A stretch of DNA of 64,000 bases from contig JAUCBJ010001846.1 of the NCBI GenBank assembly GCA_032718475.1, positions 62,001 through 126,000 on the forward strand. Reading direction: 5' to 3'. This DNA comes from Nemertoderma westbladi (lineage: Eukaryota; Animalia; Xenacoelomorpha). A model generated the notes under the pieces. That model saw nothing but the letters and a program-made list of their open reading frames with translations, made no database searches and had not been told where the DNA came from. Each line of letters starts with the position of its first letter. Positions within the stretch are counted from its first letter, which is position 1. This document shows positions 1-56,743 of the stretch, piece after piece. The translations under genes and the position numbers were made by a program.

Positions 1-39
1 AACCCGAATCAGGGGCTTATCATCAACAACACTAAACCA

Positions 40-708
40 ATGGGAAACTCCCCGTTACTTCGCTTATTACAGCTAGCTAACCCCGCCAAACCCATTGGGG
101 GGTATTGTTATTCAGCTGGGCTTGAAGGGGCTGTGAACACTGGCCTTGTGCAAAACAAAAAAGACCTTCAAGATTGGCTAAACACCCTGCTAGGTGAGGT
201 GCTTGTGTACAATGATTGTGCCTTAATGATTCGATTAATGCAGAGTTTATGCGCATCGAACATGTCCCAACTTTTACACTGGAACCAGTATGCGCTGGCT
301 ATTTTAGGTAACCAAGAGGCCTATGACGAGTCTAGAAAAATGGGTCAAGCCTTGCTGATGCTGGCCAAAAAACTGGGTATTCAGTTGCCTGCTAAACCTG
401 TTGACACACCCATCAGTTATGTCGTTTCTTATTGTTTGGTGGGGCATGCTTGGGGTATTTCCACCAACGACCTTATTTTAACCTATTTGTGGGGGTGGTT
501 AGAAAACCAACTATCTGGGGCCATGCGCTTACTACCCATTGGCCATTATGAAACACAAAAAATAATGTTAGCAGCTGATCAAACAATCAGTGCCTCCACA
601 CAGTTGGCCAAAAAAGTGCGCGATGACCAAATGGGGAAAAGCCTGCCGTTTTTTGAGCTATTATGTGCACAACACCAAACCCAATATACGCGTTTATTTC
701 AATCTTAA
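40..708 (+). CDS. ureF: Urease accessory protein UreF (intact copy)
   Basis: [22 protein letters not shown]-terminal motif, C-terminal YTRLFQS, directly upstream of ureG. Confidence 0.9.
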
Positions 709-719
709 AAGGAGGTATG

Positions 720-1325
720 ATGAAAAAAAGCCCATTTCGAATTGGTATCGGGGGGCCTGTTGGTTCAGGCAAAACAGCATTGATTCAACAATTGTGTATG
801 AATATGAAAGACACCTATCAAATGGCCGTTGTGACCAACGACATTTACACCCAAGAAGATGCCCAATTTTTAGCCAAACACCAAGCACTAGAAGCGGACC
901 GAATTGTGGGGGTTGAAACAGGCGGGTGTCCACACACGGCTATTCGGGAAGATGCCTCCGCTAATTTAATGGCCATTGAAGGTTTGGAAAAACGCTTCGA
1001 TAACCTAGATTTAATCATTGTTGAATCAGGGGGCGATAATTTAAGTGCCACCTTTAGCCCCGATTTGGCTGATATGACCTTGTATGTTATTGATGTTTGC
1101 GCGGGTGATAAAATACCTCGAAAAGGAGGTCCAGGCATTACCCGCTCTGATTTGCTGATCATCAACAAAATGGATTTAGCCCCCTATGTGGGCGCATCGC
1201 TGGCGATGATGAAAAAAGATTCAACAAGGATGCGAGGCGATAAACCCTTTGTATTCACCAACTTAAAAACACAACAAAATGTAAACCAAGTGATTGACTA
1301 CATTCAAACCAACATGGTGCTGTAG
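720..1325 (+). CDS. ureG: Urease accessory GTPase UreG (copy 1)
   Basis: [10 protein letters not shown]-loop, ETGGCPH, ESGGDNL and NKMD motifs; SD AGGAGG at 710-715 (start 717 or 720). Confidence 0.97.
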
Positions 1326-1356
1326 GCGACAGTACATTGATTAAGTGTTACCGTTT

Positions 1357-2337
1357 TCAGTCAATTAATTGATCAACTAAGTTTAACAAGGTTTGCTGCT
1401 CGTCTTGATCCAACATGCTACCTGAAAGTATTTGGTCAACCGCCTTGCGCCAATTTTGTAAATATTGTTGGGCTTGAGAAAGGGCAGTTGTTTGGTGAAA
1501 ATGACTTAAAATTAACCGAATTTGGCTATCATCACGTTTTTTAATGTAGCTTTCTACCTGTGTCTTCAGTGTGCTGGATGCCTGCATACCTAAAATTAGT
1601 GGCAAGGTGATTTTCCCTTCCACTAAATCGTGACCAGAAGGTTTGCCTAGCACATGATCTGACGACTGATAATCCAACAGATCATCAGATAATTGAAAAA
1701 TCATGCCCACATAATAGCCATAGCGTGAAAAAATCGTACATATCTCAGGGCTTGCGCTATGAGTATGGCAAACAATTTTGCCGATTAACTCAAACAAGCT
1801 GGCTGTTTTTTTCTCAATGATTTTTAAATAATCATTGATTGATAAATCAATATTAAATGCCAAGCGCATTTGGCTGACCTCACCTTCAGCCAATACACTC
1901 ATACAATGAGAAAACTCATACCCAAGACTTGGGTCATCGGCAACCAACATCAAGGCGCGGGCGGATAAAAAATCACCCGCCAAAATACTCAATGTATTGC
2001 CCCAAACATGACGTACACTGGGTTGGTGACGCCTAAATTCAGCTTGATCGATCACATCATCATGCAGTAAAGTCGCCATGTGAATCATTTCAATTGCCGC
2101 GGCTTGTTTAAAGTCTGTCTGCACATTTGTTACATCTTTTTTTGGGTGTGTTGTCATGATTTGATCAAGCATCATCCATACAAGTGGACGAATCATTTTG
2201 CCCTGACGTGCTAAATAATAATGAATAATCTCAGCTAGCAGCGGCTCATCACTTTGAAAACAAGTGGAAAAATAGGTCTTAAACTGCTTAAAACGTTCAG
2301 CAATTTGGGTATGTTGAGCGAATATTTTTTCAAACAT
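1357..2337 (-). CDS. ispB: Polyprenyl (octaprenyl) diphosphate synthase (copy 1)
   Basis: GKMIRP, LLHDDVID...RR and FQLSDDLLD aspartate-rich motifs; likely start MFEKIF at 2337. Confidence 0.9.
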   Translation of the reverse strand: MFEKIFAQHTQIAERFKQFKTYFSTCFQSDEPLLAEIIHYYLARQGKMIRPLVWMMLDQIMTTHPKKDVTNVQTDFKQAAAIEMIHMATLLHDDVIDQAEFRRHQPSVRHVWGNTLSILAGDFLSARALMLVADDPSLGYEFSHCMSVLAEGEVSQMRLAFNIDLSINDYLKIIEKKTASLFELIGKIVCHTHSASPEICTIFSRYGYYVGMIFQLSDDLLDYQSSDHVLGKPSGHDLVEGKITLPLILGMQASSTLKTQVESYIKKRDDSQIRLILSHFHQTTALSQAQQYLQNWRKAVDQILSGSMLDQDEQQTLLNLVDQLID

Positions 2338-2348
2338 GCCTGCTTTGA

Positions 2349-2747
2349 TTACTGAACACAACTCACCACCCGTCCAACAATAATCAAAAGTGGAGACTGT
2401 AGGCGTATATTCCCCACCCAAGCCTCGGCTTTTTTCAATTGTGTTTTATAAATCTGTTGATCGGCTGTGGTACCTTTGACAATAAAAGCCATGGGGGTAT
2501 CTAGTGGCATACCGTGGTCTTTTAAATTTTTAATACAAATATCTAAACTAGCTTTTCCCATGAAAAATACCAATGTTTTAAACGGATCAATTACCTTTTC
2601 CCATGGCACTTGATAGGCGAGCTTGCCCGAACCATCGCCATGTAGGGTTAAAAACTCAACCGAATGGGCACAGTCGCGATGCGTTAGGGGAATGTTGGCA
2701 TAAGACGCACAGCCATTGGCCGCACTGACCCCTGGGACAATGCTAAA
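2349..2747 (-). pseudogene. cysG: 5'-truncated duplicate of cysG (C-terminal ~132 codons only)
   Basis: Identical to 10911-11309 and cut at the repeat/island junction. Confidence 0.92.
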
Positions 2748-2821
2748 AACAAGACTGAAAACAGGATCAAGGGGGTGTTGAGGAGGAGGGGTGTGTTATA
2801 AAGTTTAAGGGTGAAAAATAG

Positions 2822-2890
2822 TGACATTGATTTTGGAAATTATTTTTCATTTCTATTGTCATTTTTTTTCAAAATGAGTGTTAACTGAAT
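2822..2890 (+). repeat. 69-bp partial copy of the MITE-like element at 29100-29269 (right part)
   Basis: TGACATTGATTTTGGAAA...GAGTGTTAACTGAAT matches 29200-29268 at 67/69. Confidence 0.9.
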
Positions 2891-2921
2891 GAAATATAAA
2901 ATTAACTTGTCACTCAACCTG

Positions 2922-3788
2922 TCATCCTACATCCACCAAAGCCCCAAAAATACTCTCTAAATCCAGACTTAAAGATTCAATTGGACGAATCAGCATGGCA
3001 AAATACGTTTGCCAAAGAATCACACCTGCCACGCCTTGCATATTAAAACTAATGACATAGCCTGCAATCAGTGTTACAAACATCAATAAGTAGACAGGCA
3101 ATGTCAGCATAAAGTTTTCTCTTGCATTCTTTATCATCTTCAATGCGATGGTTTCATACCATTTAGGTAGATGCTCAGAGAGATGTGTTTGTTTAAGGGT
3201 TTGAATGGATTGTTCTGTTTCTTTTTCGGCTAAGTTATTCCATTGTGTTCTATTGTATTTATATTTGCCTTTTATAAAAAAGCTATAGCCCAGTACAAAC
3301 ACGACACTAAAGATACAAAGCAAAGTGATAGATAGATTGATGGTAATGCTTAAAAATATAAGGGCTAATATAATTTGCAAACATGTTCCCAATATTAAGG
3401 TAGAAGATTCTGTAAAGATTGATATATAAGCCTGTCTTGTTCTTTCAAATGTTTCAATCGCATGGTCTTTATTGATTGAATGCTTTTGCGTAGCCTGAAT
3501 GCTCTGATAAGAAAAAAGTCTTGATCCATAAATATTGAGGTAAGTTGTAACTGCATGCATTGCAATGTTGAAGATGCCAAATATAGCGGTAATGCTTAAC
3601 ATCAATATCACGCTTTTTAAAACTTCTGGTGAGGTGCTGTTGGCATCTAAAAAGAGTTGGTAAATTCCTAAAGGAAATATCATGGAAACTAAAGAAGTAC
3701 ATACAAGAAGCGTTAAGAATACATAACTTAACTTTTTAGGCAAAGTTTTAAATGCTTGTTGTAGAGTTTTGATATAAAGCTTAAACAT
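2922..3788 (-). CDS. ABC exporter transmembrane domain (lasso D-like), no nucleotide-binding domain, possibly truncated
   Basis: About 6 hydrophobic segments; ends LIRPIESLS...ALVDVG, where ABC membrane domains join the NBD; no Walker A. Confidence 0.65.
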   Translation of the reverse strand: MFKLYIKTLQQAFKTLPKKLSYVFLTLLVCTSLVSMIFPLGIYQLFLDANSTSPEVLKSVILMLSITAIFGIFNIAMHAVTTYLNIYGSRLFSYQSIQATQKHSINKDHAIETFERTRQAYISIFTESSTLILGTCLQIILALIFLSITINLSITLLCIFSVVFVLGYSFFIKGKYKYNRTQWNNLAEKETEQSIQTLKQTHLSEHLPKWYETIALKMIKNARENFMLTLPVYLLMFVTLIAGYVISFNMQGVAGVILWQTYFAMLIRPIESLSLDLESIFGALVDVG

Positions 3789-5679
3789 CTTTTAAAGTTT
3801 CTTTCACTTTGGGGCTTGTGTAGTTGGGGTGGGAGAGTTTCAGTTTGGTGGCTTTATCGTTTTTTATAAAACGAAGCCAGCTTTCTGCTATTAGTTGATT
3901 ATGCAAATAACCTGTTCGCAAAGAAGCTGGATAGCCCTTGATTCTTGAAGAGGAAAGTTCCGAATATAGAAGCTTTAGAAATTCTTTTGGCTCTACCATA
4001 TTAAATTGATACAACATGGATGCAGAAGGATTGTTGGTAAAAATATCTAATAACTTTTGACTGTCATTTCTAATCATATGAACCATCATCTCGCCATAAG
4101 ATGTTTTAAATTTTTTAGTTCTAATAGATTCAGGCATAATATTTGAGAAACTGTGTCTTTGAATTTGTTTTTCTCTTGCATATTCTTCATAAAAAGAAAT
4201 ATCTTCGTGATAAGCAATATCATAAAGAAAGTGCTGAGCAATGGAATCAAAAAATTCAATAATACGTGCATCTAGCAACGGTGTTTTGTATGGAATCATA
4301 GAACTAAAAGCATCATGAAAATAAGAAGGATACTCTTCTAAAAATAAATGTCTTTGTCTATGAGTTAGTGTTGGTTCTTTTATCCATTTGCTTTGATTCA
4401 GCAATATTTTAAAAAAAGAACTAAGATTTACTTTGCCTGATACATTGTGTTCATACATGAAAGCATTGGGAATGAAAGTTAATTTGTTTCCTAAATAAAT
4501 CAGCAAACTTAAATAGAAGGACTTAAAAGAACTATTGCCAAGTTTTTGAATCACTTTAGATATACTTGCAAAACCTTTTTGCTGCATCAAATCATCTAAG
4601 CAATATTGACTACCTTCAGTTACATAATCGCCTTCACCACTCCATATAGAATGACAACCTAATTGTACAGCTAAGTTTTCTATAATTTCTTGCCAAAAAG
4701 GAAGACTCGTTGTAGCGGGTGTATCAATTCTTCTCCATGCGTCATTTGAAGATAGGCCATGAATATGAAGTAGCTTAGAACATTCAATAGGATAAAACTG
4801 GCAAGCTGTTTGATCAGCACACTGTTTAGCTAAGCCTAAGTCGTTGGTGTTGTGAAATACAGGATCACTAAAATACATGCTAAGTGCATAATTAGATTGC
4901 TTTTTATTGGCATAAATTGCACTAGCCACGGTTGCAGAATCTAAACCTCCGCTTATTTCAATCAGTTTTTTAGATGAATCTTGTGTTGTAACGACATTTT
5001 TCATCAAGTCTTCAAACGATTCACAGGCTTCTTTGAAAGATAACTTAGTTAAATCATTAGGATAATTGGAGTAATTAGAATAAGTTTTGTGCTCAATATC
5101 TAAAATCTGTTTCTTCAGATGAAAGCTAATACATGTGCCGCTACCCAAAAGCCTGACATTTTTTAAGCAGGTATCATGAAAAGATTCTGAAATATTATTT
5201 TGAAAAGAAAGCCACTGTTGTAAGCGTTGAGCATCTACCTCTAATTCAAAATTAGGAATCAGAAGTAAAATTCTTGAATCCGTTGTAATGTAATGGTTAT
5301 TGTGAAGCGATACCACATAAAGAGGAGGGCTTGTATAAAACGATGAAATAATTAAAAACTGATTGCCTGTATAAGCTGTGGCAATATAGATGCCTGCAAT
5401 ATCTTTTCTTGCCTCATTGTAGTTATTTTTCCATCTATCATTCCATAGCTGTTTATCTATTATTGGGTTTTCAAGATTCATGTATTGATCATTAAAAGTA
5501 CAAAAGCCTTGCCCTAAAAAGTTGGCATTTAGTTTTTGATATTGGTGTCTAAAGATTGCTTTCTTAACAATGCCTGCATCTTGTAAAAAGGATTTAAAAT
5601 CATTTCCAAGCCACTCTTTGCAAGACAAATACCATTGTTTAATCAACGCTTCTTTTTTTCCAATTCCAATCATCAACAT
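3781..5679 (-). CDS. Lasso peptide cyclase (asparagine-synthetase-like, C protein)
   Basis: EISGGLDSATV PP-loop, WSGEGD, TPLLDARIIEF; 632 aa; no N-terminal Cys of true AsnB; adjacent to B2, RRE and precursor. Confidence 0.9.
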   Translation of the reverse strand: MLMIGIGKKEALIKQWYLSCKEWLGNDFKSFLQDAGIVKKAIFRHQYQKLNANFLGQGFCTFNDQYMNLENPIIDKQLWNDRWKNNYNEARKDIAGIYIATAYTGNQFLIISSFYTSPPLYVVSLHNNHYITTDSRILLLIPNFELEVDAQRLQQWLSFQNNISESFHDTCLKNVRLLGSGTCISFHLKKQILDIEHKTYSNYSNYPNDLTKLSFKEACESFEDLMKNVVTTQDSSKKLIEISGGLDSATVASAIYANKKQSNYALSMYFSDPVFHNTNDLGLAKQCADQTACQFYPIECSKLLHIHGLSSNDAWRRIDTPATTSLPFWQEIIENLAVQLGCHSIWSGEGDYVTEGSQYCLDDLMQQKGFASISKVIQKLGNSSFKSFYLSLLIYLGNKLTFIPNAFMYEHNVSGKVNLSSFFKILLNQSKWIKEPTLTHRQRHLFLEEYPSYFHDAFSSMIPYKTPLLDARIIEFFDSIAQHFLYDIAYHEDISFYEEYAREKQIQRHSFSNIMPESIRTKKFKTSYGEMMVHMIRNDSQKLLDIFTNNPSASMLYQFNMVEPKEFLKLLYSELSSSRIKGYPASLRTGYLHNQLIAESWLRFIKNDKATKLKLSHPNYTSPKVKETLKDV

Positions 5680-5684
5680 GGTAT

Positions 5685-6152
5685 TTACAATAATACTTGA
5701 TGGAGGTTATCCTGAAGGTAGTTTTCTTTTTTGATGACAGTTAATCCCCTTATTTGATTGAATATGTCTATTTGTTGTAAAGATTTTTTGGTTTGATACT
5801 CTAACCAAGCATGTTGAATAATTTTACCACCCGCTCCATCTTTTGCTACTGCGTAAACAACATAGGACTTAAAACCAAATACCCCGCAATACAAATGAAA
5901 AGCAACAGAGGCAGTTAAACAAGTTAATGCTATATTATTGTTTTCATAATTGCTTGCTACAAGTTTTCGTAAACGATTGAGCTTTTTATGGAACAAAAAG
6001 CTGATGGGTTCTTGTGGATGGAATGTGGTATCAATGTAACTGCATTGCCGACAACATTTTAAAATCGCTTTATCTGTAGTTTTAGATTCATTGAGGTTTG
6101 ATAAAAAACTAGCATGTAAGAGCTTAAAAAGTAATAAATCTTTTTTCATCAA
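5685..6152 (-). CDS. Lasso leader peptidase (B2, transglutaminase-like)
   Basis: TCLTASVA ... QHAWLEY Cys/His motifs typical of lasso B2; 155 aa. Confidence 0.88.
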   Translation of the reverse strand: MMKKDLLLFKLLHASFLSNLNESKTTDKAILKCCRQCSYIDTTFHPQEPISFLFHKKLNRLRKLVASNYENNNIALTCLTASVAFHLYCGVFGFKSYVVYAVAKDGAGGKIIQHAWLEYQTKKSLQQIDIFNQIRGLTVIKKENYLQDNLHQVLL

Positions 6153-6952
6153 AGGTTAAAGTCTGCATGTAAAGCAAATGCCCAACTGTTTGCATGAAAA
6201 CTAAATTGTTTTTTATGTTGATCTAACACATAGTGAGCACTTAAATGGCTACTTTCTATTTTTTCAATAATATTGCCTTGGCGCTTATTTTCTGCCTTTG
6301 AAATACAGCTATTAAGTAAAAGTACTTCTGCATGATGTTTTAAGGCTGTGTTTTGAAGAAATCTTATGTATTTTTGATATTTAGAATATGCATTTTTTAC
6401 AGAATAATCTCTAAAAAACAAATCAGGTAAGGCTATTAAAATACCTTTGTTATTAAGAACAGATGGAATCTTTCTAAGATAAGAAGTAATGTCATAACAA
6501 AAGATCAAATTGATTCCAAAAAATGAAGCATATTGAATCCATCTTTTTTCCAAAACGGGCATCCAACTTCTTCTATAAATTAAAATTTCAATCTGATCTT
6601 CTCTTTTTAAACGTAAATTAAAAACCAAGGAGAATATATAAGGTAATAGAAACTTACCATGAGCTGATATAACAATAAAAGGTTGATTCCATTTCTCTAC
6701 ATCGACTTCTATAAAATTTTGGAAATACTTTGCAAAAGCAATATGTTGTGAACAACATAAATAATCATAGTATACCCTCATGTTGTTGATATAACCTTTT
6801 TCCAAAAGCAACCTTTGGGCTTTAGGCAAGGTAAATCTCAAAACAAAATTATGCAGATACGCTAAAGCAGTATGAAGACATCTTTTATAAAAGGAGGTAT
6901 AAAAACTTCTTAAAAATAAATGAAGATGTAAAGACTCTACACAAGCCTTCAT
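6149..6952 (-). CDS. Divergent lipid-A/lysophospholipid acyltransferase-like protein (LpxL/HtrB-like)
   Basis: FIVISAHG, NKGILIALPD and C-terminal NSWAFALH follow the LpxL motif order; the acidic residue of HxxxxD/E is not evident. Confidence 0.55.
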   Translation of the reverse strand: MKACVESLHLHLFLRSFYTSFYKRCLHTALAYLHNFVLRFTLPKAQRLLLEKGYINNMRVYYDYLCCSQHIAFAKYFQNFIEVDVEKWNQPFIVISAHGKFLLPYIFSLVFNLRLKREDQIEILIYRRSWMPVLEKRWIQYASFFGINLIFCYDITSYLRKIPSVLNNKGILIALPDLFFRDYSVKNAYSKYQKYIRFLQNTALKHHAEVLLLNSCISKAENKRQGNIIEKIESSHLSAHYVLDQHKKQFSFHANSWAFALHADFNL

Positions 6953-7530
6953 GTTTGACTATAAAAAGCTACTTTTTCATCTTCTATTGTATAACCCATA
7001 TTTTTTAGAGCACTTCGGGCAATAGCAAATGCCTTTTTAAGAGGCATGTGGGTTAGCATCTCAAATAGAAGCAGCGTAAACAATAAAGTAGAGTTGCCAT
7101 CGGGGTAACGAGGAAAGCCAATATAGTTTTTAGTTTTATGTTCTAACCAAACATCTGCCCAAGTTTGAGTACCTGTCATACAAGCAGTAGAAAGTATCAA
7201 TTGACATTTGCTTTTGTTTGGATGTTGTGAAAGTAAAGTTTCAAGTTGTTGAGTTTGAATGAGATTATTCTCAAACTTGTACTTTAAGGGCACAGATTCG
7301 TGGACTTCAGGTAAAGAAAAACCTGCGTTGTCTTGCGAATCACTGTCTCCATGCCCGTCAATAATCAGGTAAGGGGTTTTAGGTGTTTTTGTAATATGTT
7401 TTACAAAATCATCAGCGCTTCCGATATAGTGCATCAATACTTCGTAACATAAATATTCTAAAGATGATCGTATAGCTTGAGTGGACAATGAATCACTGAT
7501 GCAAAAAATGGTTACTTTTTTGTTTTTCAC
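6949..7530 (-). CDS. Stand-alone caspase/CHAT-like (clan CD) cysteine protease
   Basis: YLIIDGHG and LILSTACMTG, i.e. His-Gly and Ala-Cys dyad motifs each after a hydrophobic strand; GTG start. Confidence 0.65.
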   Translation of the reverse strand: MKNKKVTIFCISDSLSTQAIRSSLEYLCYEVLMHYIGSADDFVKHITKTPKTPYLIIDGHGDSDSQDNAGFSLPEVHESVPLKYKFENNLIQTQQLETLLSQHPNKSKCQLILSTACMTGTQTWADVWLEHKTKNYIGFPRYPDGNSTLLFTLLLFEMLTHMPLKKAFAIARSALKNMGYTIEDEKVAFYSQT

Positions 7531-7804
7531 AAAGATTGTGTTTTTGAATTAAACCAACCTCTATTAAATCATCAATAGCCAATTGTAAATAGTTTTTAGA
7601 TGAATGTTTAGAATCGGTTACTATTTCTATTGATTCAGCTATATTTGAAAGTTCGTTTAATGTAAGTTTTTTGTTTTCTAAAATTTTTTGAACAATAAAC
7701 GTGTGAACTTCTGAAAGCTCCAATATTTCTTCGTCTTTGTGTACCACCATGTTGTTGTCTAAAACAACATGGTGCATACCACAATAAGCGTAAGCTTCTT
7801 TCAT
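7493..7804 (-). CDS. RiPP recognition element (PqqD-like, lasso B1)
   Basis: About 100 aa; LELSEVHTFIVQKI...LAIDDLIEVGLI PqqD-like pattern; directly downstream of the precursor. Confidence 0.75.
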   Translation of the reverse strand: MKEAYAYCGMHHVVLDNNMVVHKDEEILELSEVHTFIVQKILENKKLTLNELSNIAESIEIVTDSKHSSKNYLQLAIDDLIEVGLIQKHNLCEKQKSNHFLHQ

Positions 7805-7809
7805 ATAAG

Positions 7810-7974
7810 CTAACTACCGCCACCGATACTGATAGTGCCTGTATTAAAACCGGAGCCACCACCTTTAGAGCCTCTCGGACGTGTTCCGTCACCCGGTTTA
7901 TTCTTTGTTCTCTGCGTTGCAATAGCAATATCTCCATGTTTCTTAATAGGAACATAATTTAATTTTTTCTTCAT
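7810..7974 (-). CDS. Lasso peptide precursor, 54 aa: leader MKKKLNYVPIKKHGDIAIATQ + RTKNKPGDGTRPRGSKGGGSGFNTGTISIGGGS
   Basis: SD GGAGG at 7980-7984; leader has Y-x-P...G-x5-T-x with Thr at -2; Asp at core position 8; first gene of the cluster. Confidence 0.9.
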   Translation of the reverse strand: MKKKLNYVPIKKHGDIAIATQRTKNKPGDGTRPRGSKGGGSGFNTGTISIGGGS

Positions 7975-8560
7975 AAATACCTCCACAGATTTCAAAATAA
8001 GATTTTAACTTAATAAACTCCCTTATTTCAAGATACTTTTAATAAATCTACATGTTGTAAATTCTTAAAAATCATATCCCCACGCAAATAAAGCAGTATA
8101 AAAATGAATTTAGATACCAAATATGAAGCAGGATTTTTTTGCTTATTCCAGAAAAAAGCAGGGATAATCTCATCTTTAACATGGCCTTTGTTATTGAGTG
8201 CATCCCCTACCAGCAGTAATCTTTTAATCAAGAACAGACATATGAATGAAGTTGCCAGAACGCTAATATCTGTTCATTTTGATGAACAACGATACTTGAA
8301 TCCAACTTAACATGTATAGAATCGACAAATTGATAAACACACATTTGGGCTTAAAAGTAGCCCCATGAAACTATCTTTCCCCTTATTAATTGGTTGCTGA
8401 CACTATTTAACCTCCAAGTAACACCCATTTTTCTCAATTTGATTCTCCGTTTGATTCACATTCCATCATTTTCTTGAGGGTTAATGAATTAGATGTGTTG
8501 GTTGTTTTTGTGAATGCTTATGACCTATTCTTTAAACAAAACTTGATTCAACACCATTAG

Positions 8561-8755
8561 TTAAAGACATTGCGCATTACTTGGATTTGAAAGTATATAA
8601 GCAGTTTCTTCATAAGATTGAAAATCTTCAAGGCTCATTACAACAGCAGTTTTCTTGTTTTGACGAGTAATCAAAATGGGCTGATGATCATCACTGACTT
8701 TGTCTAGGTTTTTTGCTAATTGATCTCGGAATGAAGAGTAAGTAATCGTTTCCAT
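8561..8755 (-). pseudogene. yefM: Phd/YefM antitoxin, C-terminally shortened, orphan (no toxin gene)
   Basis: METITYSSFRDQLA...ITRQNKKTAVVMSLEDFQSYEETAY; 64 aa vs ~83 typical; start lies 17 bp from the island junction. Confidence 0.8.
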
Positions 8756-8772
8756 ATAAAATTTGGTTTAAT

Positions 8773-9270
8773 AATGATTGTGCCTTAATGATTCGATTAA
8801 TGCAGAGTTTATGCGCATCGAACATGTCCCAACTTTTACACTGGAACCAGTATGCGCTGGCTATTTTAGGTAACCAAGAGGCCTATGACGAGTCTAGAAA
8901 AATGGGTCAAGCCTTGCTGATGCTGGCCAAAAAACTGGGTATTCAGTTGCCTGCTAAACCTGTTGACACACCCATCAGTTATGTCGTTTCTTATTGTTTG
9001 GTGGGGCATGCTTGGGGTATTTCCACCAACGACCTTATTTTAACCTATTTGTGGGGGTGGTTAGAAAACCAACTATCTGGGGCCATGCGCTTACTACCCA
9101 TTGGCCATTATGAAACACAAAAAATAATGTTAGCAGCTGATCAAACAATCAGTGCCTCCACACAGTTGGCCAAAAAAGTGCGCGATGACCAAATGGGGAA
9201 AAGCCTGCCGTTTTTTGAGCTATTATGTGCACAACACCAAACCCAATATACGCGTTTATTTCAATCTTAA
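8773..9270 (+). pseudogene. ureF: 5'-truncated duplicate of ureF (first 57 codons missing)
   Basis: Identical to 211-708 and cut at the junction. Confidence 0.92.
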
Positions 9271-9281
9271 AAGGAGGTATG

Positions 9282-9887
9282 ATGAAAAAAAGCCCATTTC
9301 GAATTGGTATCGGGGGGCCTGTTGGTTCAGGCAAAACAGCATTGATTCAACAATTGTGTATGAATATGAAAGACACCTATCAAATGGCCGTTGTGACCAA
9401 CGACATTTACACCCAAGAAGATGCCCAATTTTTAGCCAAACACCAAGCACTAGAAGCGGACCGAATTGTGGGGGTTGAAACAGGCGGGTGTCCACACACG
9501 GCTATTCGGGAAGATGCCTCCGCTAATTTAATGGCCATTGAAGGTTTGGAAAAACGCTTCGATAACCTAGATTTAATCATTGTTGAATCAGGGGGCGATA
9601 ATTTAAGTGCCACCTTTAGCCCCGATTTGGCTGATATGACCTTGTATGTTATTGATGTTTGCGCGGGTGATAAAATACCTCGAAAAGGAGGTCCAGGCAT
9701 TACCCGCTCTGATTTGCTGATCATCAACAAAATGGATTTAGCCCCCTATGTGGGCGCATCGCTGGCGATGATGAAAAAAGATTCAACAAGGATGCGAGGC
9801 GATAAACCCTTTGTATTCACCAACTTAAAAACACAACAAAATGTAAACCAAGTGATTGACTACATTCAAACCAACATGGTGCTGTAG
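9282..9887 (+). CDS. ureG: UreG (copy 2)
   Basis: Translation identical to copy 1. Confidence 0.95.
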
Positions 9888-9918
9888 GCGACAGTACATT
9901 GATTAAGTGTTACCGTTT

Positions 9919-10899
9919 TCAGTCAATTAATTGATCAACTAAGTTTAACAAGGTTTGCTGCTCGTCTTGATCCAACATGCTACCTGAAAGTATTTGGTCA
10001 ACCGCCTTGCGCCAATTTTGTAAATATTGTTGGGCTTGAGAAAGGGCAGTTGTTTGGTGAAAATGACTTAAAATTAACCGAATTTGGCTATCATCACGTT
10101 TTTTAATGTAGCTTTCTACCTGTGTCTTCAGTGTGCTGGATGCCTGCATACCTAAAATTAGTGGCAAGGTGATTTTCCCTTCCACTAAATCGTGACCAGA
10201 AGGTTTGCCTAGCACATGATCTGACGACTGATAATCCAACAGATCATCAGATAATTGAAAAATCATGCCCACATAATAGCCATAGCGTGAAAAAATCGTA
10301 CATATCTCAGGGCTTGCGCTATGAGTATGGCAAACAATTTTGCCGATTAACTCAAACAAGCTGGCTGTTTTTTTCTCAATGATTTTTAAATAATCATTGA
10401 TTGATAAATCAATATTAAATGCCAAGCGCATTTGGCTGACCTCACCTTCAGCCAATACACTCATACAATGAGAAAACTCATACCCAAGACTTGGGTCATC
10501 GGCAACCAACATCAAGGCGCGGGCGGATAAAAAATCACCCGCCAAAATACTCAATGTATTGCCCCAAACATGACGTACACTGGGTTGGTGACGCCTAAAT
10601 TCAGCTTGATCGATCACATCATCATGCAGTAAAGTCGCCATGTGAATCATTTCAATTGCCGCGGCTTGTTTAAAGTCTGTCTGCACATTTGTTACATCTT
10701 TTTTTGGGTGTGTTGTCATGATTTGATCAAGCATCATCCATACAAGTGGACGAATCATTTTGCCCTGACGTGCTAAATAATAATGAATAATCTCAGCTAG
10801 CAGCGGCTCATCACTTTGAAAACAAGTGGAAAAATAGGTCTTAAACTGCTTAAAACGTTCAGCAATTTGGGTATGTTGAGCGAATATTTTTTCAAACAT
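9919..10899 (-). CDS. ispB: Polyprenyl diphosphate synthase (copy 2)
   Basis: Translation identical to copy 1. Confidence 0.9.
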   Translation of the reverse strand: MFEKIFAQHTQIAERFKQFKTYFSTCFQSDEPLLAEIIHYYLARQGKMIRPLVWMMLDQIMTTHPKKDVTNVQTDFKQAAAIEMIHMATLLHDDVIDQAEFRRHQPSVRHVWGNTLSILAGDFLSARALMLVADDPSLGYEFSHCMSVLAEGEVSQMRLAFNIDLSINDYLKIIEKKTASLFELIGKIVCHTHSASPEICTIFSRYGYYVGMIFQLSDDLLDYQSSDHVLGKPSGHDLVEGKITLPLILGMQASSTLKTQVESYIKKRDDSQIRLILSHFHQTTALSQAQQYLQNWRKAVDQILSGSMLDQDEQQTLLNLVDQLID

Positions 10900-10910
10900 G
10901 CCTGCTTTGA

Positions 10911-12284
10911 TTACTGAACACAACTCACCACCCGTCCAACAATAATCAAAAGTGGAGACTGTAGGCGTATATTCCCCACCCAAGCCTCGGCTTTTTTCAA
11001 TTGTGTTTTATAAATCTGTTGATCGGCTGTGGTACCTTTGACAATAAAAGCCATGGGGGTATCTAGTGGCATACCGTGGTCTTTTAAATTTTTAATACAA
11101 ATATCTAAACTAGCTTTTCCCATGAAAAATACCAATGTTTTAAACGGATCAATTACCTTTTCCCATGGCACTTGATAGGCGAGCTTGCCCGAACCATCGC
11201 CATGTAGGGTTAAAAACTCAACCGAATGGGCACAGTCGCGATGCGTTAGGGGAATGTTGGCATAAGACGCACAGCCATTGGCCGCACTGACCCCTGGGAC
11301 AATGCTAAAGGGAATGCTGTGATCGGCTAAATGCGTAATTTCCTCACCCCCCCGACCAAAAACAAATGGGTCACCCCCTTTTAATCGAACCACATGCTTG
11401 CCTGCTTGGTAATGTTCAACCATCAGATCACAAATAACCGATTGTGGAACACTTTTGCCATAGCCGCGTTTACCCACCGCAACTAACTGAGCATCTCGCC
11501 TTACAAATTCTAAAACGCCCTGACCGATTAGTTGATCATGCAACAACACATCAGCACGTCTCATCAATCGACAAGCTTTGAGTGTTAAAAGCTCAGGGTC
11601 GCCTGGCCCTGCACCCACAATTGAGACACTGCCTGTATGATGTTGACGATTATTAAACTGTTTTAAGCAAGTGTTGGCATGGGCTAACATGGCTTGATGG
11701 GTTTGATAATTCAACAATTGATCTAATTGGTCATCCAGCAAGTATTGCCAAAAACGTTTTTTGGTTTCATCCAAACGCATTTTTTGAACCAAAGGGCGTA
11801 GGGTGTCAACCACCTCAATTAACTGGGTATAAGTTTTGGGCAGTTGTTGGAGTAGGTGTTTGCGAATGCCAGCACTGAGCATGGGGGCTTTGGTGCTGCT
11901 ACTGATGGCAATTAAAAGGGGGCTGCGATCAATCACAGACGGGACAACCGCACTACAAAAATTGGGCTGGTCAACTACATTTACCAAACAGTTTGTTTGA
12001 CTTGCTTGATGATAAATTTGTTGATTAATCAAGGGGTCATCGGTTGCAGCAATCACCAAGAACTGATCCTCTAAATCACATAGGTCATAACATCGTTTGA
12101 CTAAAAATAATCGGTGGGTTTGATCGTCCAGTGTCTTAATTTCAGGTAAAATTTCGGGGGCAACAACTGTTAGTATCACACCGGCTTGATAAAGGCGTTT
12201 TGCTTTTTGAAACGCAATTTTTCCCCCACCCACAATTAAACACTTTTTTTGATGCAGGTCTAAAAAAAGGGGGTACAAACTCAT
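10911..12284 (-). CDS. cysG: Siroheme synthase (multifunctional CysG)
   Basis: YPLFLDL..IVGGG dehydrogenase domain; VGAGPGDPELLTLKA and RLKGGDPFVFGRGGEE methyltransferase motifs. Confidence 0.97.
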   Translation of the reverse strand: MSLYPLFLDLHQKKCLIVGGGKIAFQKAKRLYQAGVILTVVAPEILPEIKTLDDQTHRLFLVKRCYDLCDLEDQFLVIAATDDPLINQQIYHQASQTNCLVNVVDQPNFCSAVVPSVIDRSPLLIAISSSTKAPMLSAGIRKHLLQQLPKTYTQLIEVVDTLRPLVQKMRLDETKKRFWQYLLDDQLDQLLNYQTHQAMLAHANTCLKQFNNRQHHTGSVSIVGAGPGDPELLTLKACRLMRRADVLLHDQLIGQGVLEFVRRDAQLVAVGKRGYGKSVPQSVICDLMVEHYQAGKHVVRLKGGDPFVFGRGGEEITHLADHSIPFSIVPGVSAANGCASYANIPLTHRDCAHSVEFLTLHGDGSGKLAYQVPWEKVIDPFKTLVFFMGKASLDICIKNLKDHGMPLDTPMAFIVKGTTADQQIYKTQLKKAEAWVGNIRLQSPLLIIVGRVVSCVQ

Positions 12285-12736
12285 TGACTTAACAATTGAT
12301 CTTGCAAGAAATAATCAAATCGTGAAAAAGCCGCTTCAATGGCTTGCAAACTGTAGGGCTTTGCAAATAAAAAACCATTAATACCGCAACGGCGCATAAA
12401 ACCAATTTGATCGAGCAATACATCCCCCACCGCGACGATCATATTTTGATAATGTAGGTCATTCACCAAACGATACGCCTGACTATAGCCCCGCCCATCT
12501 GTAAATGCTGGGAACTCAATTTCGATCACTGATAAAGACTGATAATTAATTGATTGCAAATCAATCACATGATCAACTGATGAAAGCCGAACCCCTAGTG
12601 GTAGCGCATTTTCAAGCAAGCTGGGTTCATTTTTAACCCACTCAATGGGTAAAACGGTGTTTTCAACTAATTGATCAGGTGATGTTTTAAAGTGCCAAGG
12701 GTAGGGGCAAAAATCACCTTTGTGATAAAAGTTCAT
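12281..12736 (-). CDS. DUF934 family protein
   Basis: IEFPAFTDGRGYSQAYRL...GDVLLDQ...MRRCG; typical partner of cysI. Confidence 0.9.
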   Translation of the reverse strand: MNFYHKGDFCPYPWHFKTSPDQLVENTVLPIEWVKNEPSLLENALPLGVRLSSVDHVIDLQSINYQSLSVIEIEFPAFTDGRGYSQAYRLVNDLHYQNMIVAVGDVLLDQIGFMRRCGINGFLFAKPYSLQAIEAAFSRFDYFLQDQLLSQ

Positions 12737-14376
12737 TGATACACCCGTTTTTTAAACGGGGCAACCCCAATTCGTTTATAAGTCGCTAAAAACGTTTCAC
12801 CGTCGAGCTTGTGTTGGGTGTAGGTTTGAACCACAGTATCAATGGCCGCTAACAGGCCATCGTGTGGCACGGCAGGCCCCATCACTTTGGCGCGCAACCC
12901 TAAGGCAGCTGAGCCCCCTAAGCCAATTTGATACCAATATTCCCCTTTTTTATCCACCCCTAAAATCCCAATATCCGCTGCATGGTGATGGCCGCACGCA
13001 TTCATACAGCCCGACATTTTAAGGCTGATCCCCCGAGCGGCGTATTGATCCTGAATGGCTTCAAAATGTTGTTGAATTTTCATCGATAAATCAATGGTCG
13101 GCGCATTGGCAAGGGAGCAAAAATCAAACCCTGGGCAACAAATTAAATCACCAATGGTGCCAATATTAGCGGTGGCTAAATCAGCCGCTTTTAATTGTTG
13201 CCATAATGGGTAGAGTTTTTCATATTCCACATCGGGTAACACCAAATTTTGATCATGAGTTGAACGAATCATTGAAAAGCTGTACTGATCAGATAAATCA
13301 GCAAGCAAATGCATTTGCTTGCTGCTAATATCGCCCGCTGCTTTTTGGCCTGATTTTAAAGAAACCATCACAATTCGATACCCAGAAACCTTATGTGAAA
13401 AGGTATTTTTCTCAAACCACTGTTCAAAGGCTGTGTCTGCTTTTGCAATTGCTGGCAGGTCACTGGCCAATCCTTTTTGATAGCCCAGCATTTGAAAATG
13501 TTGTTGAAAACTTTCTAACTTTTGATTAGATACGACATAATCTGCTTTTCTTTTTGCCCATTCGACTTCAACCAATTCCCTAAACTGCTCAATGCCCAAG
13601 GCATTGACTAAAATTTTAATACGCGACTTATATATATTGTCGCGACGGCCTTGCTCGTTATAAATACGAAGGATTGCTTCTAAATACGACAATAAATCTT
13701 TTTTGGGTAAAAATTCTCGAATCACCTTGCCTGCAAAAGGCGTACGACCCATCCCCCCACCGACTAACACCTCAAAACCCACCTCATCTGTTTTGGTGTC
13801 ACGCACAATGTAAAGGCCAATATCATGCCACAAAACAGCTGCGCGATCATGTTGTTTACAACCACTGACGGCAAACTTAAATTTGCGCGGCAAAAAAGAA
13901 AATTCAGGGTGTAAGGTTGACCATTGGCGAATGAGTTCGCAATATGGTCGTGGGTCTTCCACCTCGCCTTCGGCTACCCCTGCTAAATGATCAGCCGTGA
14001 CATTGCGAATACAATTGCCGCTGGTTTGCATGGCATGCATTTGAACACTTGCTAAATCGCCCAACACTTGGGGGATTTTTTCAAGGGGTATCCAGTTAAA
14101 TTGAATGTTTTGGCGAGTGGTCATATGACCATAACCCTTATCGTAACGATCTGCAATATCAGCTAACATCCGAAGCTGTTTACTATTCATCAGTCCATAA
14201 GGAATCGCCACCCGAAGCATAGGGGCATGACGCTGAATATAGAGCCCGTTCATTAAACGAAGGGGGCGAAACTGCTCTTCAGATAACGCCCCCTTCAAAA
14301 AACGCTGTGTTTGGTCTGTAAATTCTTTAACCCGTGCATCAACAAGGGCTTGGTCGACTGCGTTGTATTGATACAT
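12733..14376 (-). CDS. cysI: Sulfite reductase hemoprotein (nitrite/sulfite reductase)
   Basis: MYQY start, LPRKFK, CPGFDFC and SGCMNACG siroheme/Fe-S ligands. Confidence 0.93.
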   Translation of the reverse strand: MYQYNAVDQALVDARVKEFTDQTQRFLKGALSEEQFRPLRLMNGLYIQRHAPMLRVAIPYGLMNSKQLRMLADIADRYDKGYGHMTTRQNIQFNWIPLEKIPQVLGDLASVQMHAMQTSGNCIRNVTADHLAGVAEGEVEDPRPYCELIRQWSTLHPEFSFLPRKFKFAVSGCKQHDRAAVLWHDIGLYIVRDTKTDEVGFEVLVGGGMGRTPFAGKVIREFLPKKDLLSYLEAILRIYNEQGRRDNIYKSRIKILVNALGIEQFRELVEVEWAKRKADYVVSNQKLESFQQHFQMLGYQKGLASDLPAIAKADTAFEQWFEKNTFSHKVSGYRIVMVSLKSGQKAAGDISSKQMHLLADLSDQYSFSMIRSTHDQNLVLPDVEYEKLYPLWQQLKAADLATANIGTIGDLICCPGFDFCSLANAPTIDLSMKIQQHFEAIQDQYAARGISLKMSGCMNACGHHHAADIGILGVDKKGEYWYQIGLGGSAALGLRAKVMGPAVPHDGLLAAIDTVVQTYTQHKLDGETFLATYKRIGVAPFKKRVYQ

Positions 14377-27541: not shown

Positions 27542-28303
27542 CTATTTACGAAAAACATATTCATTGCAGCCCATTTTGCCGCCCACTGTCTTTATTTTTT
27601 CCAATTGATAGCCTTTAACTATGATAAAAATCAACAATCTGCTCAGGGGTAGAAACTTCAAAGGGATACCCACCTACCCAGTCAATCAGGTCAACCCAAA
27701 TATTCATGCCCCTAGGTATTTTTCGACGTGTGACTAATTTCAGAACAACGCTTGGCAATGTTGGGTACAAAAGATGCAGCCCAATTAAAATAGGCCGACT
27801 GATCAAAAATTTGTTGTATAACTTTTTAATAACCGTCCAGTACGCACTGGCAAATGGCTGATAATTATACAAAGCAATCAATAACTTGCCGCCCTTTTTG
27901 ACATTCACATTGATATTTTCCAATGCGTTGTACATATTGCCTGTGTGGTGCAGCACACCCCACGAATACACAATATCGAATGTGCCTATCTTTTTTAGAT
28001 AATCAACATCCAACGCCGAGCCTTCCTCAATGTGCCATTTGTCATCATTTTTGAAGTATCTGAGCTTCAACTCACGGGTGCAAGCCACACACGCTGGATC
28101 ATAATCAAATGAAAAAACACGAGCGCCCAGCCGCCTTGACGCCAAAGAAAACAAGCCACTACCTAAAAAAGATAAGCCCGCTAAAGTGCTCCCAAAATTT
28201 CTTTTTAAGCTATTTTCGGCCTCGACAATACGTTGCTCCCCCAATTGGCACCGAATTTAAACCGACGCCCGTCTTTAACTTCCTCACGATGCGTTGATAT
28301 CAA
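27542..28303 (-). pseudogene. Class I SAM-dependent methyltransferase, degraded
   Basis: RFKFGANW N-terminus and GGKMGCNEYVFRK C-terminus are out of frame with ORF 27615-28244; SAM motif appears shortened (SFLGSGLFS); YSWGVLHHTG present. Confidence 0.8.
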
Positions 28304-28377: not shown

Positions 28378-29413
28378 CTAAATTTTTTGCTTGGGAAAAG
28401 CACTTGAAAAGGTGATGACCTGCTGGGCGATTTGCGCAATAGCGTACTCATAAAAGGCTTGGTTTGCTTGGGTGTCACATAAGCCAAAAAGTTGTTGGCC
28501 TGCTTGGGTAAAAAGTGCTTTTCCTGTTTGTAACTGGTTGTTATCTTTTTTAGGGAACTCAAGTAATATTGGCTGCTTGTGATAAAAAAATATTGCCACC
28601 TCCATAGAGCCCATACTTTTCGTACCCTCCAACTGGATCAAACGATATTAACCCAATGGCATCTAAATGTTTTAGCGCTTTAAAATTAATCCCTTGCTCC
28701 TTGTATATTTCATTTTCATAATCAAAAATCAGAGGCACTCCATCCCCTATCACCCACACAAACTGGCAAAATTTTGTAAAAAACTTTGCATCACTTTTAT
28801 CCATCAAGGCCACTAAATTAAGCGTTCGTTTTGAATAGACGTTAGGGTTGGTAGCCTCTTTTGCCAATAAATTTGCCCAAAGTAATTGCATGATTGTATC
28901 CGATACCTTATCGCAGTGATCAAACAAATGAACCAACCAGTCTTCATCTAATTTTTCGGGCTTGGCATTTGGGGGCAGGTTTTTGATGGCTTGGGTAGTG
29001 ATTGATTCAGTATTTTTTGTTTTCGGGTTTGTTGGTGTGCCCACCAAACAGCCGCACGCTTTTCAATACCACCAACGGCTACATCCGCCTTGGCCATTAC
29101 ACTGGAGTAACACACATTCTGAAAACTACAAAAAGATACCAAAAACACTCCAACCTCAAACACACCAAAAAATCATGGCAATTTATCTATTCAAGAAAAT
29201 GACATTGATTTTGGAAAATCTTTTTCATTTCTATTGTCATTTTTTTTCAAAATGAGTGTTAACTGAATTTTATGATTTTAGCTTTTTGTCCTCGGCCTTT
29301 TTAACGATTCTTTTAGGCTCATACAAAATATCAACTGCATTGAACATTTTTTTAGAAAACACAGTTGCAGGCTTGGTTAAATCACCTAAATCAACAGAAA
29401 TATTATCTAGCAT
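28378..29413 (-). pseudogene. DUF2806-like protein, frameshifted and interrupted by a 170-bp insertion
   Basis: SD GGAGG + MLDNISVDLGDLTKPATV at 29413; continues MAKADV..., LDEDWL...VSD..MQLLWANLLAKEA..P..YSKRTL in pieces. Confidence 0.78.
29100..29269. mobile_element. 170-bp non-coding MITE-like insertion with sub-terminal inverted repeats
   Basis: 18-bp IRs at 29108-29125 and 29244-29261 (16/18), each 8 bp from the end; flanked by TTA at 29097-29099 and 29270-29272; removal rejoins the gene in frame. Confidence 0.7.
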
Positions 29414-33800: not shown

Positions 33801-34829
33801 TCAAGTCGCATGCAACACCAAATTTTTCTCAAACTCATTCAAACGCTTCCAAATGCTTCTAAGCTCGGTGATGGTTGTCCAATTATGTAAAAAAAGTGAA
33901 AAACTGCCATGCACTTTTTGAAAGGCATTGCTTACTTGCACCACCACCCCTAGCTGAATCAGCCCTGTAAACAAACTAGAGCCCACAAATAAATACGGCA
34001 CAATCATCATGAACTGATCATAAAAATTCAACCACAAATCAAAGTACCCATAATGCAAATAAAGCCGCTGATAATTAAACCGAATGCCTAAAAAAAGCTC
34101 CTTTAAGGTTTCAGGCTTGGCATAATTGATTTTATCATCCTCGCCTAGTACCAAATCTTTACGAAATGCAGCCTCAACTTTTTGGTTGTTATATTCCAAA
34201 CCGGGTAAATACCACCCCACCAACCATGAAATTAAAAGCCCACCAAGGGATACTACCAAAGCTACCCAAACCAGTGAACCATCCGCGACTTTAAGCCAAC
34301 TTAAGCCCACACTCGTGCTCAAGTTCCACAAAATCGGTAAAAAGGCCACCAAAGTCATAATGGCTCGAACAATTTGTAAGCCTAATGATTCCACAATGCG
34401 GGCAAAACGATTGCAGTCTTCTTGAATACGTTGGCTTGCGCCTTCAATTTCAGCCGTTACATTACGCCAGCGGGGAATATAGTCAAAGGTGATGGCCTCG
34501 CGCCAACGAAGACCATATATACGCGTAAACCAGCCTGTTAAAGTGGCTAAAATTACATAGGGGAAGGCCACAACCGAAAACGAGGGGTCGCCTTCAAGCC
34601 CATTGTATAAATAACTTAAAGATAGCAGGTGATCAAAAAAAAGCGTGATGCCTACCTGTGGATCATTCACATAATTGCCCGCATTTTGAAGCAAGTTATA
34701 AAACCTTCCATACCACTGGTTAATCGCTACTGTCATTTGCACCTGTAGCCACAACGACCCTAATAAAAGTAGCGCCCCACCCCATGCCCACATGGCCCAA
34801 TGCTTCGTCCAGAAAAATGCTTTAATCAT
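33801..34829 (-). CDS. SbmA/BacA-like peptide transporter
   Basis: AINQWYGRFYNLLQ, IEGASQRIQED, NNQKVEAAFRKDLVLGED and WTTITELRSIWKRL motifs. Confidence 0.88.
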   Translation of the reverse strand: MIKAFFWTKHWAMWAWGGALLLLGSLWLQVQMTVAINQWYGRFYNLLQNAGNYVNDPQVGITLFFDHLLSLSYLYNGLEGDPSFSVVAFPYVILATLTGWFTRIYGLRWREAITFDYIPRWRNVTAEIEGASQRIQEDCNRFARIVESLGLQIVRAIMTLVAFLPILWNLSTSVGLSWLKVADGSLVWVALVVSLGGLLISWLVGWYLPGLEYNNQKVEAAFRKDLVLGEDDKINYAKPETLKELFLGIRFNYQRLYLHYGYFDLWLNFYDQFMMIVPYLFVGSSLFTGLIQLGVVVQVSNAFQKVHGSFSLFLHNWTTITELRSIWKRLNEFEKNLVLHAT

Positions 34830-41035: not shown

Positions 41036-42219
41036 ACTTTCTTCATCACTAGCCAATTCCAATTGTGGCACTGTCTGAACGGCACTTCCTGCTATTCCCT
41101 TAATTGATCCATACATATGGATTGTATTAAAAGAACCTTATCGATTTGTTTTTGGCGTTTTTTCCAATTTGCTTCCATTGAGCGCTTTTCGGTATTTAAA
41201 TCGTTTTGCATTTGTGTAAAGCCTTCTACAATTGCTTCAATCTGTAATTTAAATTCATTGCTTGTAAGAAAATCATAAAGCATCCCCATTTTATCGCCCT
41301 TGTTTTCTTGTGTAGTTATGGCGGTGCTAATTCGAATTATAGACTCTCTTAAAACCGTACACAGACCTTTGAATTCATCAAACGAACACACCCAAATGCC
41401 TTCTCTCAATCCCATACAATCCATGTCAGCAGGCATTGCATCTGTTACCAATACGCCTATGTCTGCATTTTTATCTCGGATATCAGATTTGAACTTTTCT
41501 ATCCATGATGGCTGGAAGTTTTTTGTTCTTTTGCTTTCGTAGTAGATGGTTCCGCAATTCTGGCGACTGAGAGTGTGAACTGTTTGTAAACAGTCAGCGC
41601 CTCGTTCACCTTTTTTTATTTCATTGATAGAATCAAGCGGAAATTGAGCAGATAACCACTGCTCAATCGCTAGTTCTTGGACTTCACCTTGTAATTGCGT
41701 TGACCCTTGTTCAGCTTTGCGCTGCGCTTCAGCCATCTGTTTTTTTAGCTGATTTATAACCTGCTCTTTCTTGGAAATATTAAGTTATGCTTCCAACTCT
41801 ATCTTATCTTTGAGTTCTCCTTTCTCACGCTTTAGCCTCTCAATATCTGCCTTGAATTTGTTAAGCACTTTGACCTGCTCGGATTTCTCTTCTAATTCCT
41901 TACGAAGGGCTGCTATTCTTTCCTCTTGCTCTTCTTTGGCTTGCTCCTTTAACGACTGCTCTAGTTTTGCAAGCTCTTCCTTTACACCGCTTTTAATAGC
42001 GCTAGACACTCGCTCCTTATAATCCTCATTTGCCTTTTCAATAGCCTCTTTTGCTGCCTTTAGCTCTTCTTCCTTTGATTCTAAATCTTTACGTTCTTTT
42101 GCGATTTTATCGTTGTATTTCTTCTTAAGCTCACCGTCCAATTGATGATATAAGATTTCGTTTACGTCGATTTCTTCGCCGCAATTAGGACAGCTTATTT
42201 TGTTCGATTCTTTACTCAT
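41034..42219 (-). pseudogene. DUF2130 family protein with an in-frame stop and a frameshift
   Basis: ISCPNCGEEID, QGSTQLQGEVQELAIE, YYESKRTK; stop at 41785-41787; C-terminal MYGSIKGIAG is out of frame. Confidence 0.85.
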
Positions 42220-52032: not shown

Positions 52033-52184
52033 AAAGTTGTGAATAAAAACTGTATATCTACAAAAAATTTGTTTTTAACAAACTATTCACAGTATTTAAT
52101 TTTTACTTTTCCTTAGTAACTACTATTAATTTTTTGTTTTTTATATAATCATATTCATACTTTTACTACTAAACTTTAATATAT
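52033..52184. promoter_or_regulatory. Candidate oriC (dnaA-dnaN intergenic region)
   Basis: Perfect DnaA box TGTGAATAA at 52038-52046; 1-mismatch boxes at 52072-52080 and 52083-52091; then a very AT-rich tract with TACTACTATT (DnaA-trio-like). Confidence 0.65.

Positions 52185-53294: not shown

Positions 53295-56743
<3,449 letters not shown>

Follow-up and report, generated by a model that had tools for sequence, protein, structure and literature searches.

How a lasso peptide gene cluster came to lie between two copies of a bacterial housekeeping block, with no recombinase of its own, is the question raised by the DNA analysed here. It is a stretch of 64,000 nucleotides (the window) from the Nemertoderma westbladi assembly GCA_032718475.1, contig JAUCBJ010001846.1, positions 62,001 to 126,000. 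The cluster probably belongs to a chromosomal array of the form A-(R-I)n-R-B, where A and B are the flanks, R is the repeat and I the enclosed island, with copies gained and lost through homologous recombination between the repeats and a mean n of about 1.4-1.5. Alignment of positions 211-2747 with 8773-11309 gave a direct repeat of 2,537 bp with 0 mismatches, and identity stopped at both ends. In a self-BLAST of the window, this pair was the sole long repeat. Its copies enclose 6,025 bp (2748-8772), and R plus island form a unit of 8,562 bp. The guanine-plus-cytosine (GC) content was 0.325 in the island and 0.419 in R.

The duplication cuts ureF and cysG, and an intact copy of each is left (Table 1). 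The ureF version in copy 2 lacks its first 57 codons and the cysG version in copy 1 its first 325. The gene ureG and a polyprenyl synthetase gene (ispB by its family, PF00348) are both present twice and complete. Open reading frames (ORFs) and Pfam matches thus agreed with a preliminary description, which had reported a perfect duplication, two genes cut mid-gene and two doubled. That description had also seen neither integrase nor transposase in the enclosed stretch, and scans with Pfam, NCBIfam and PHROGs gave the same result. No match to an integrase, transposase or Rep protein was found among the island ORFs of at least 60 amino acids (aa) and the precursor, smaller frames being listed for 7990-8570 only. 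Searches for terminal inverted repeats or att sites of the island or unit, for Rfam families in positions 1-14000 and for island DNA in a phage collection were equally empty. The unit contained no iteron-like family, DnaA-box cluster or Rep match, and no dif-like site was found in a scan with Xer-site arms. Both breakpoints fall on codon boundaries, which was discarded as meaningless, the chance being 1 in 9 and no useful fusion frame being seen. With the target duplicated and each cut gene still present once in full, the locus has the Campbell-type geometry named in the preliminary description. Campbell-type single-crossover insertion-duplication is a textbook mechanism, and the geometry by itself is of an ordinary, known kind. 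A literature search for it that required five terms at once returned no paper.

Copy number was assessed in run X1, which contained 0.99 of the words of positions 2748-12747. It was the sole run and possibly the source of the window, hence not independent, and its size of 1.58 million contigs marks it as a mixed community. R was present as a single collapsed contig, exactly 2,537 bp long, with paths leading in from flank A and the island and out to flank B and the island. All four junctions were present as contigs, and the complete loose-end table of one contig search held no further edge at the ends of R. Flank A goes on upstream in a 47,812-bp contig from position 240, so the duplication is not an overlap of contig ends. 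Depth was 32.3 in flank A (47,812 bp), 36.8 in flank B (17,851 bp) and 49 in the island (5,740 bp). The two island junction contigs showed depths of 50 and 49.7, and R reached 87.5. The contigs beside a second copy of the yefM locus at the island's right end had depths of 34 and 31.7 and the piece over 29200 had 37, so that the five contigs outside the repeat and island spanned 31.7-37. A flow model predicted an R depth of 82.0 (A plus link) or 86.8 (B plus link), whereas a fixed single unit would give 34.5 for the island and 69 for R. The unit number was 1.42 from the island over the flank mean and 1.53 from R over the flank mean minus one, with a range of 1.33-1.71 across the bases tried. 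R and flank B were nearly equal in GC content (0.419 and 0.417), so GC bias is not the cause of the excess depth of R. These contig depths suggest more than one copy of the unit per chromosome, in line with the earlier suggestion that it could amplify.

Other arrangements were weighed against the same graph and depths. If all cells carried a fixed single insertion A-R-I-R-B, the plain Campbell-type outcome with the extra depth due to local library bias, all four junctions would likewise exist. The 14% difference between A and B and the depth of 68 for the contig shared by both yefM loci, twice the chromosomal depth, would suit it as well. It is nevertheless unlikely, because depth rises together above the value for a single unit in the island, both links and R (1.42-1.53), with the five other contigs remaining at 31.7-37. 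A mostly free 8,562-bp R-I circle beside empty A-R-B chromosomes, with the loop unrolled by the assembler, is expected to give the same graph and depths, and no listed piece spans R. This arrangement appears improbable for several reasons. Maintaining 1.4 free copies per chromosome would be difficult for a unit in which no Rep match, iteron-like family or DnaA-box cluster was found. The even flank depths would speak against whole-genome amplification favouring circles, and 2.5 kb of identity would drive integration.

Both island ends run through repeated contigs (2791-2890 and 8571-8772), through which the assembler could have made a wrong pairing, the copies of R being truly far apart and the rearrangement sitting at the 202-bp yefM copy. 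Such an error predicts 34 for the island and links and 69 for R. The observed depths match the island (49) to its R link (49.7) and the second yefM flanks to each other (34 and 31.7), which makes it very unlikely. The preliminary description had further allowed for an artefact merging island-bearing and island-free strains. X1 is a mixed community and empty chromosomes may well exist, but in a merge the island would lie below flank depth. It lies above, both novel junctions are near 50 and R is at 87.5, so the depths fit A-(R-I)n-R-B and leave the merge highly improbable. The misassembly envisaged in the same description is also disfavoured, with junction contigs on both sides and R at 2.5x the flank depth instead of equal to it.

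Several points weigh against the array. The evidence consists of contigs from one run, and contig depth is not copy number. For the shared 202-bp yefM contig, the flow model predicts 81-83, so that the observed 68 is about 2 standard deviations low if 150-bp reads are assumed. The 14% gap between A and B points to regional bias. Among the pieces listed none spans R, so arrays, excised circles and empty chromosomes look alike, and the A-R-I-R-B order was traced through a loop in the graph. The graph was read from 8/23 and 8/11 contig pieces, with 6/9 loose ends in the first set. At the right junction, base 8773 is of the ureF type, placing the join at the edge of the microhomology described below and not within it, and the second yefM locus is placed in the same genome by equal depth alone. 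At the junction on the cysG side, 2748-2790 has no other context in the listed pieces. The perfect identity of the copies had earlier been taken as a sign of very recent capture, yet R is one collapsed contig and contigs drop variants, so the identity may exist by construction and gives no date.

The array would explain how the unit varies in number, and the island ends bear on its origin. The right 209 bp of the island are a copy of the yefM locus, in which the gene ends at codon 64 of about 83. A second yefM locus is present elsewhere in X1; a 202-bp contig (8571-8772) is common to both, and contigs of 1,836 and 8,722 bp flank it there. The 1,836-bp contig reads on past the yefM stop of the island, and, by eye, the reading frame stays open through its 30-letter loose end. 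The 8,722-bp contig differs from positions 8743-8785 by one letter, put at 8773 by the contig fork at 8772. For the 12 identical letters that follow at this fixed place, the chance was about 7e-8. In metagenome contigs, a search with a 26-nt yefM pattern returned 0 stretches. For end-joining at bacterial duplication junctions, the available part of one report gives a microhomology range of 5-25 bp (10.64898/2026.05.22.727201). The right junction is likely a microhomology join and not the plain capture of a foreign circle. From the recombinase-free capture of a circle proposed earlier, the absence of a recombinase stands; a simple foreign circle is disfavoured, since both insert ends copy DNA elsewhere in X1 and the right junction lies beside the microhomology. 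The gene comEC, mentioned with that proposal, is in the window, and nothing was found that links it to this event.

At the left end of the island lies a dispersed intergenic repeat, whose predicted fold was no better than that of shuffles (z 0.47 to -1.17). A second copy at 29048-29270 is situated between secA and a DUF2806 fragment (28559-29047) and a methyltransferase (27615-28244). X1 contigs break at 29048-29270, so more short repeats are likely. As the island ends copy the yefM locus and the dispersed repeat, the cluster probably lay within host-lineage DNA before its move.

A sequence of events compatible with these features would start with the cluster beside host-lineage DNA, in the same or a sister strain, with the truncated yefM on one side and the dispersed repeat on the other. 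A 6-kb piece would then have been joined to ureF via the 12-bp microhomology and to cysG via a second illegitimate join. The piece may have bridged two sister chromosomes, or have passed through a short-lived circular form inserted by a single crossover; both routes would give an identical product with ureF and cysG intact. With 2.5-kb repeats on both sides, the unit could then amplify or pop out by RecA-type unequal exchange without a recombinase of its own. Duplication followed by RecA amplification is an established two-step process, according to the available text of PMC11721125. The cargo would yield a cationic lasso peptide with a predicted Arg1-Asp8 ring, which would act on the ribosome as lariocidin does.

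Table 1. Coordinates of the repeat, the island, its genes and its junction features in the window.
Feature	Position	Strand	Basis or remark
ureF, intact	40..708	+	Pfam PF01730, E 2.5e-35
Repeat R copy 1: 3' part of intact ureF, ureG, ispB-like gene, 3' remnant of cysG	211..2747		
Island I, 6,025 bp, GC 0.325	2748..8772		main contig 2861-8600, depth 49
Dispersed intergenic repeat, left end of island	2791..2890		2822-2890 recurs at 29200-29268 (67/69 identical); more copies in X1
288-aa membrane protein, likely membrane half of exporter	2922..3788	-	4 strong hydrophobic segments; label from position
Predicted lasso macrocyclase (C), 632 aa, SGGLDS motif retained	3781..5679	-	Asn_synthase E 7.6e-07
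Predicted lasso leader peptidase (B2), 155 aa	5685..6152	-	NF033537 E 1.5e-04, PF13471 E 5.1e-05, both under curated cut-off
267-aa protein; lead lipid A acyltransferase-like, candidate self-resistance acyltransferase	6149..6952	-	
193-aa protein; lead CHAT/caspase-fold cysteine protease, candidate tail-trimming enzyme	6949..7530	-	
B1, likely leader-binding RRE, 103 aa	7493..7804	-	size and position only
Predicted precursor (A), 54 aa	7810..7974	-	NF050022, NF050021 weak matches, under cut-off
yefM antitoxin locus copy, cut after codon 64 (ORF 8561-8755)	8564..8772	-	PF02604; NF008499 positions 1-64 of 83
Repeat R copy 2: 5'-truncated ureF, ureG, ispB-like gene, 3' part of intact cysG	8773..11309		
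12-bp microhomology, ureF (212-223) = continuation of second yefM locus	8774..8785	+	one base from island-R junction
cysG, intact	10911..12284	-	Pfam PF00590 + PF13241; best relatives 44-46% identical

The island carries a predicted canonical triculamin/lariocidin-like lasso cluster with an extra-long tail, two extra candidate tailoring genes and a membrane-only transporter. The operon lies on the minus strand in the order precursor, likely B1, 193-aa gene, 267-aa gene, B2, cyclase and membrane protein. The precursor has a 21-aa leader with Gly-8 and Thr-2, and the core RTKNKPGDGTRPRGSKGG is followed by 15 further Gly/Ser-rich residues. Against NF050022, the lariocidin/triculamin core model, it scored 16.7 with a cut-off of 27. 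The core contains KPGDG, in which PGDG is centred on Asp8, and is rich in cationic residues, the features that define the triculamin-like family in the available portion of PMC12070363. The 632-aa cyclase had 59 relatives, the best 38% identical. In a comparison with 72,556 plasmids it gave one match, to Bacillus wiedmannii p536 (L118), in a gelatinamin-like cluster with PGDG precursors. The island precursor aligned with precursors of the p536 cluster at 46% and 39%, with Gly-8, Thr-2 and KPGDGTR in common. At positions 4033-4820 of the p536 locus, five tandem, unannotated triculamin-like precursor genes were seen, four of them sharing one core and the fifth being a variant. A tblastn search of plasmids with the island precursor found nothing and missed the p536 precursors too, so the blank says little. 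Word-seeded protein searches were empty for both precursor and cyclase, and the cyclase profile gave 5 weak partial matches in viral contigs. The closest cyclase relative (P0001, 38%) is a cluster of five unnamed metagenome proteins with an altered ATP-loop motif.

The remaining genes were assigned with varying firmness. Pairwise comparison of B2 gave E 0.088, and the 103-aa protein in the B1 position matched neither PqqD, nor the PDB, nor B1 of p536. For the 193-aa protein, the Atlas returned a CHAT lead at rank 7 (score 0.95, 174 features, PF12770 on 15% of members), and His-Gly and Ala-Cys motifs were read off the sequence. Its single-sequence model had a predicted local distance difference test (pLDDT) value of 42 and no fold match, and the ORF showed no significant match to the clostripain of p536. 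CHAT proteases and clostripain have a His-Cys fold in common. The Atlas lead for the 267-aa protein stood at rank 4 (score 0.92, 147 features, PF03279 on 29% of members), and its model had a pLDDT of 41 and no fold match. The 288-aa membrane protein, which ends 32 bp before the dispersed repeat, showed no ATPase domain, no family or PDB match and no similarity to the p536 transporter tested. A transporter without an ATPase domain that ends beside a repeat suggests that the cluster may be incomplete. Neither GNAT nor clostripain was matched in the island cluster, and core position 2 is Thr, which sets the peptide apart from class V lasso peptides. A count of promoter-like sites gave 13, below the 28.3 of shuffled sequence. 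A search for the lariocidin-core family in one unrelated genome and 14 controls gave no match and was uninformative.

The host, an uncultured bacterium, appears to be a divergent gammaproteobacterium, judged by its proteins, and likely an undescribed long-branch lineage. IspB had a best relative at 40% (32 loci) and UreG at 75%, and CysG matched at 44-46%, including gammaproteobacterial names. Among the 80 UreG loci retained out of 567, 0 carried ispB or cysG. No close relative of the host, in which an empty allele might be sought, was found in GTDB or a metagenome scan, where UreG reached 75%, CysG 46% and IspB 40% at best. Further features were observed in the window. The genes dnaA, dnaN, recF and gyrB were recognised by ORF sequence at 50707-56743, with a low-GC stretch at 50-54 kb, and the replication origin may be near. 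An importer of the SbmA/BacA family is encoded at 33801-34829 (PF05992, E 2.3e-113), and no link to the lasso cluster was shown. SbmA/BacA relatives take up some antimicrobial peptides. A DUF2130 gene at 41092-42219 appears to be broken into a first ORF that has the Pfam match (41092-41736) and a second, coiled-coil one (41785-42219), and is possibly a pseudogene. A perfect 26-bp palindrome lies within the sulfite reductase gene at 13299-13324.

As a recombination product the locus is ordinary, with junctions and depths that are unusually easy to read, and its cargo is a distant, testable member of an antibiotic family. Junctions and depths together outline a concrete route without a recombinase, a microhomology join followed by repeat-driven copy change, in a natural population. 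Lariocidin is a new antibiotic scaffold to which the cargo is distantly related, and the Arg1 core, long tail and different tailoring genes of the cargo make it a ready candidate for heterologous expression. If the peptide is active, the known chemistry and self-resistance of the lariocidin family would be widened. A bolder proposal is that a wild deep-branching gammaproteobacterium tunes the dose of a ribosome-targeting lasso peptide through accordion-type expansion of an 8.6-kb unit that it made itself. The cluster would also represent a new lariocidin branch, with the long Gly/Ser tail trimmed or re-ligated by a CHAT/caspase-fold protease and the producer shielded by a lipid-A-type acyltransferase instead of a GNAT. 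This combination is doubtful.

Comparisons with published systems refer to the available portions of the cited papers. The p536 cluster contains a GNAT, B1, B2, C, two ABC transporters and a clostripain, which is the gene set of gelatinamin (PMC13178200) and lariocidin (PMC11451635). Family members are already known from Gammaproteobacteria (PMC12070363; PMC11451635). Like lariocidin lrc, gelatinamin gel, palmamin pal (PMC12070363) and the p536 cluster, the island has a leader with Thr-2, PGDG on Asp8, a cationic core, a predicted stand-alone B2 and a full-length cyclase. KNKPGDGTR of its core is identical to the p536 core, whereas the cyclases are only 23% identical. The core begins with Arg1 and Thr2, while lariocidin B and gelatinamin A cross-link Lys2. 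Its tail is about 14-15 residues longer than in canonical triculamin-like clusters, although Figure S17 of PMC12070363 and Extended Data Figure 9 of the lariocidin paper may already include long-tailed members. In place of GNAT and clostripain, two unassigned genes are present, and the transporter lacks the ATPase domain of canonical clusters.

A narrow literature search on tandem amplification of lasso gene clusters returned a Streptomyces review only. The unit shares its end geometry, the whole copy of each cut gene and the lack of a recombinase with a Campbell-type integrant. It differs in that there is no evidence of a replicon or outside circle, both insert ends copy DNA elsewhere in X1 and a 12-bp microhomology is seen at one junction. 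Amplifiable units likewise have a cargo between long direct repeats (PMC11721125), an example being Streptomyces AUD90, which overlaps the stambomycin cluster (PMC5869714). In those units copy number shifts by homologous recombination, and first junctions form with or without microhomology (PMC11721125, PMC5869714). Their repeats are insertion sequences, ribosomal RNA or modular genes, whereas here a housekeeping block cut mid-gene is repeated, and the inferred copy number, at a mean of about 1.4-1.5, is low and concerns a wild population. Short-patch illegitimate recombination is a further analogue. In Streptococcus pneumoniae transformation merodiploids (PMC3784515) and in small-fragment-driven amplification in yeast (PMC3521702), a fragment links two chromosome points and gives a tandem duplication or circle, as proposed here. 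Those cases use existing repeats or designed homology of at least 20 nt, whereas here the bridge would be a 6-kb cargo with 12 bp at one end.

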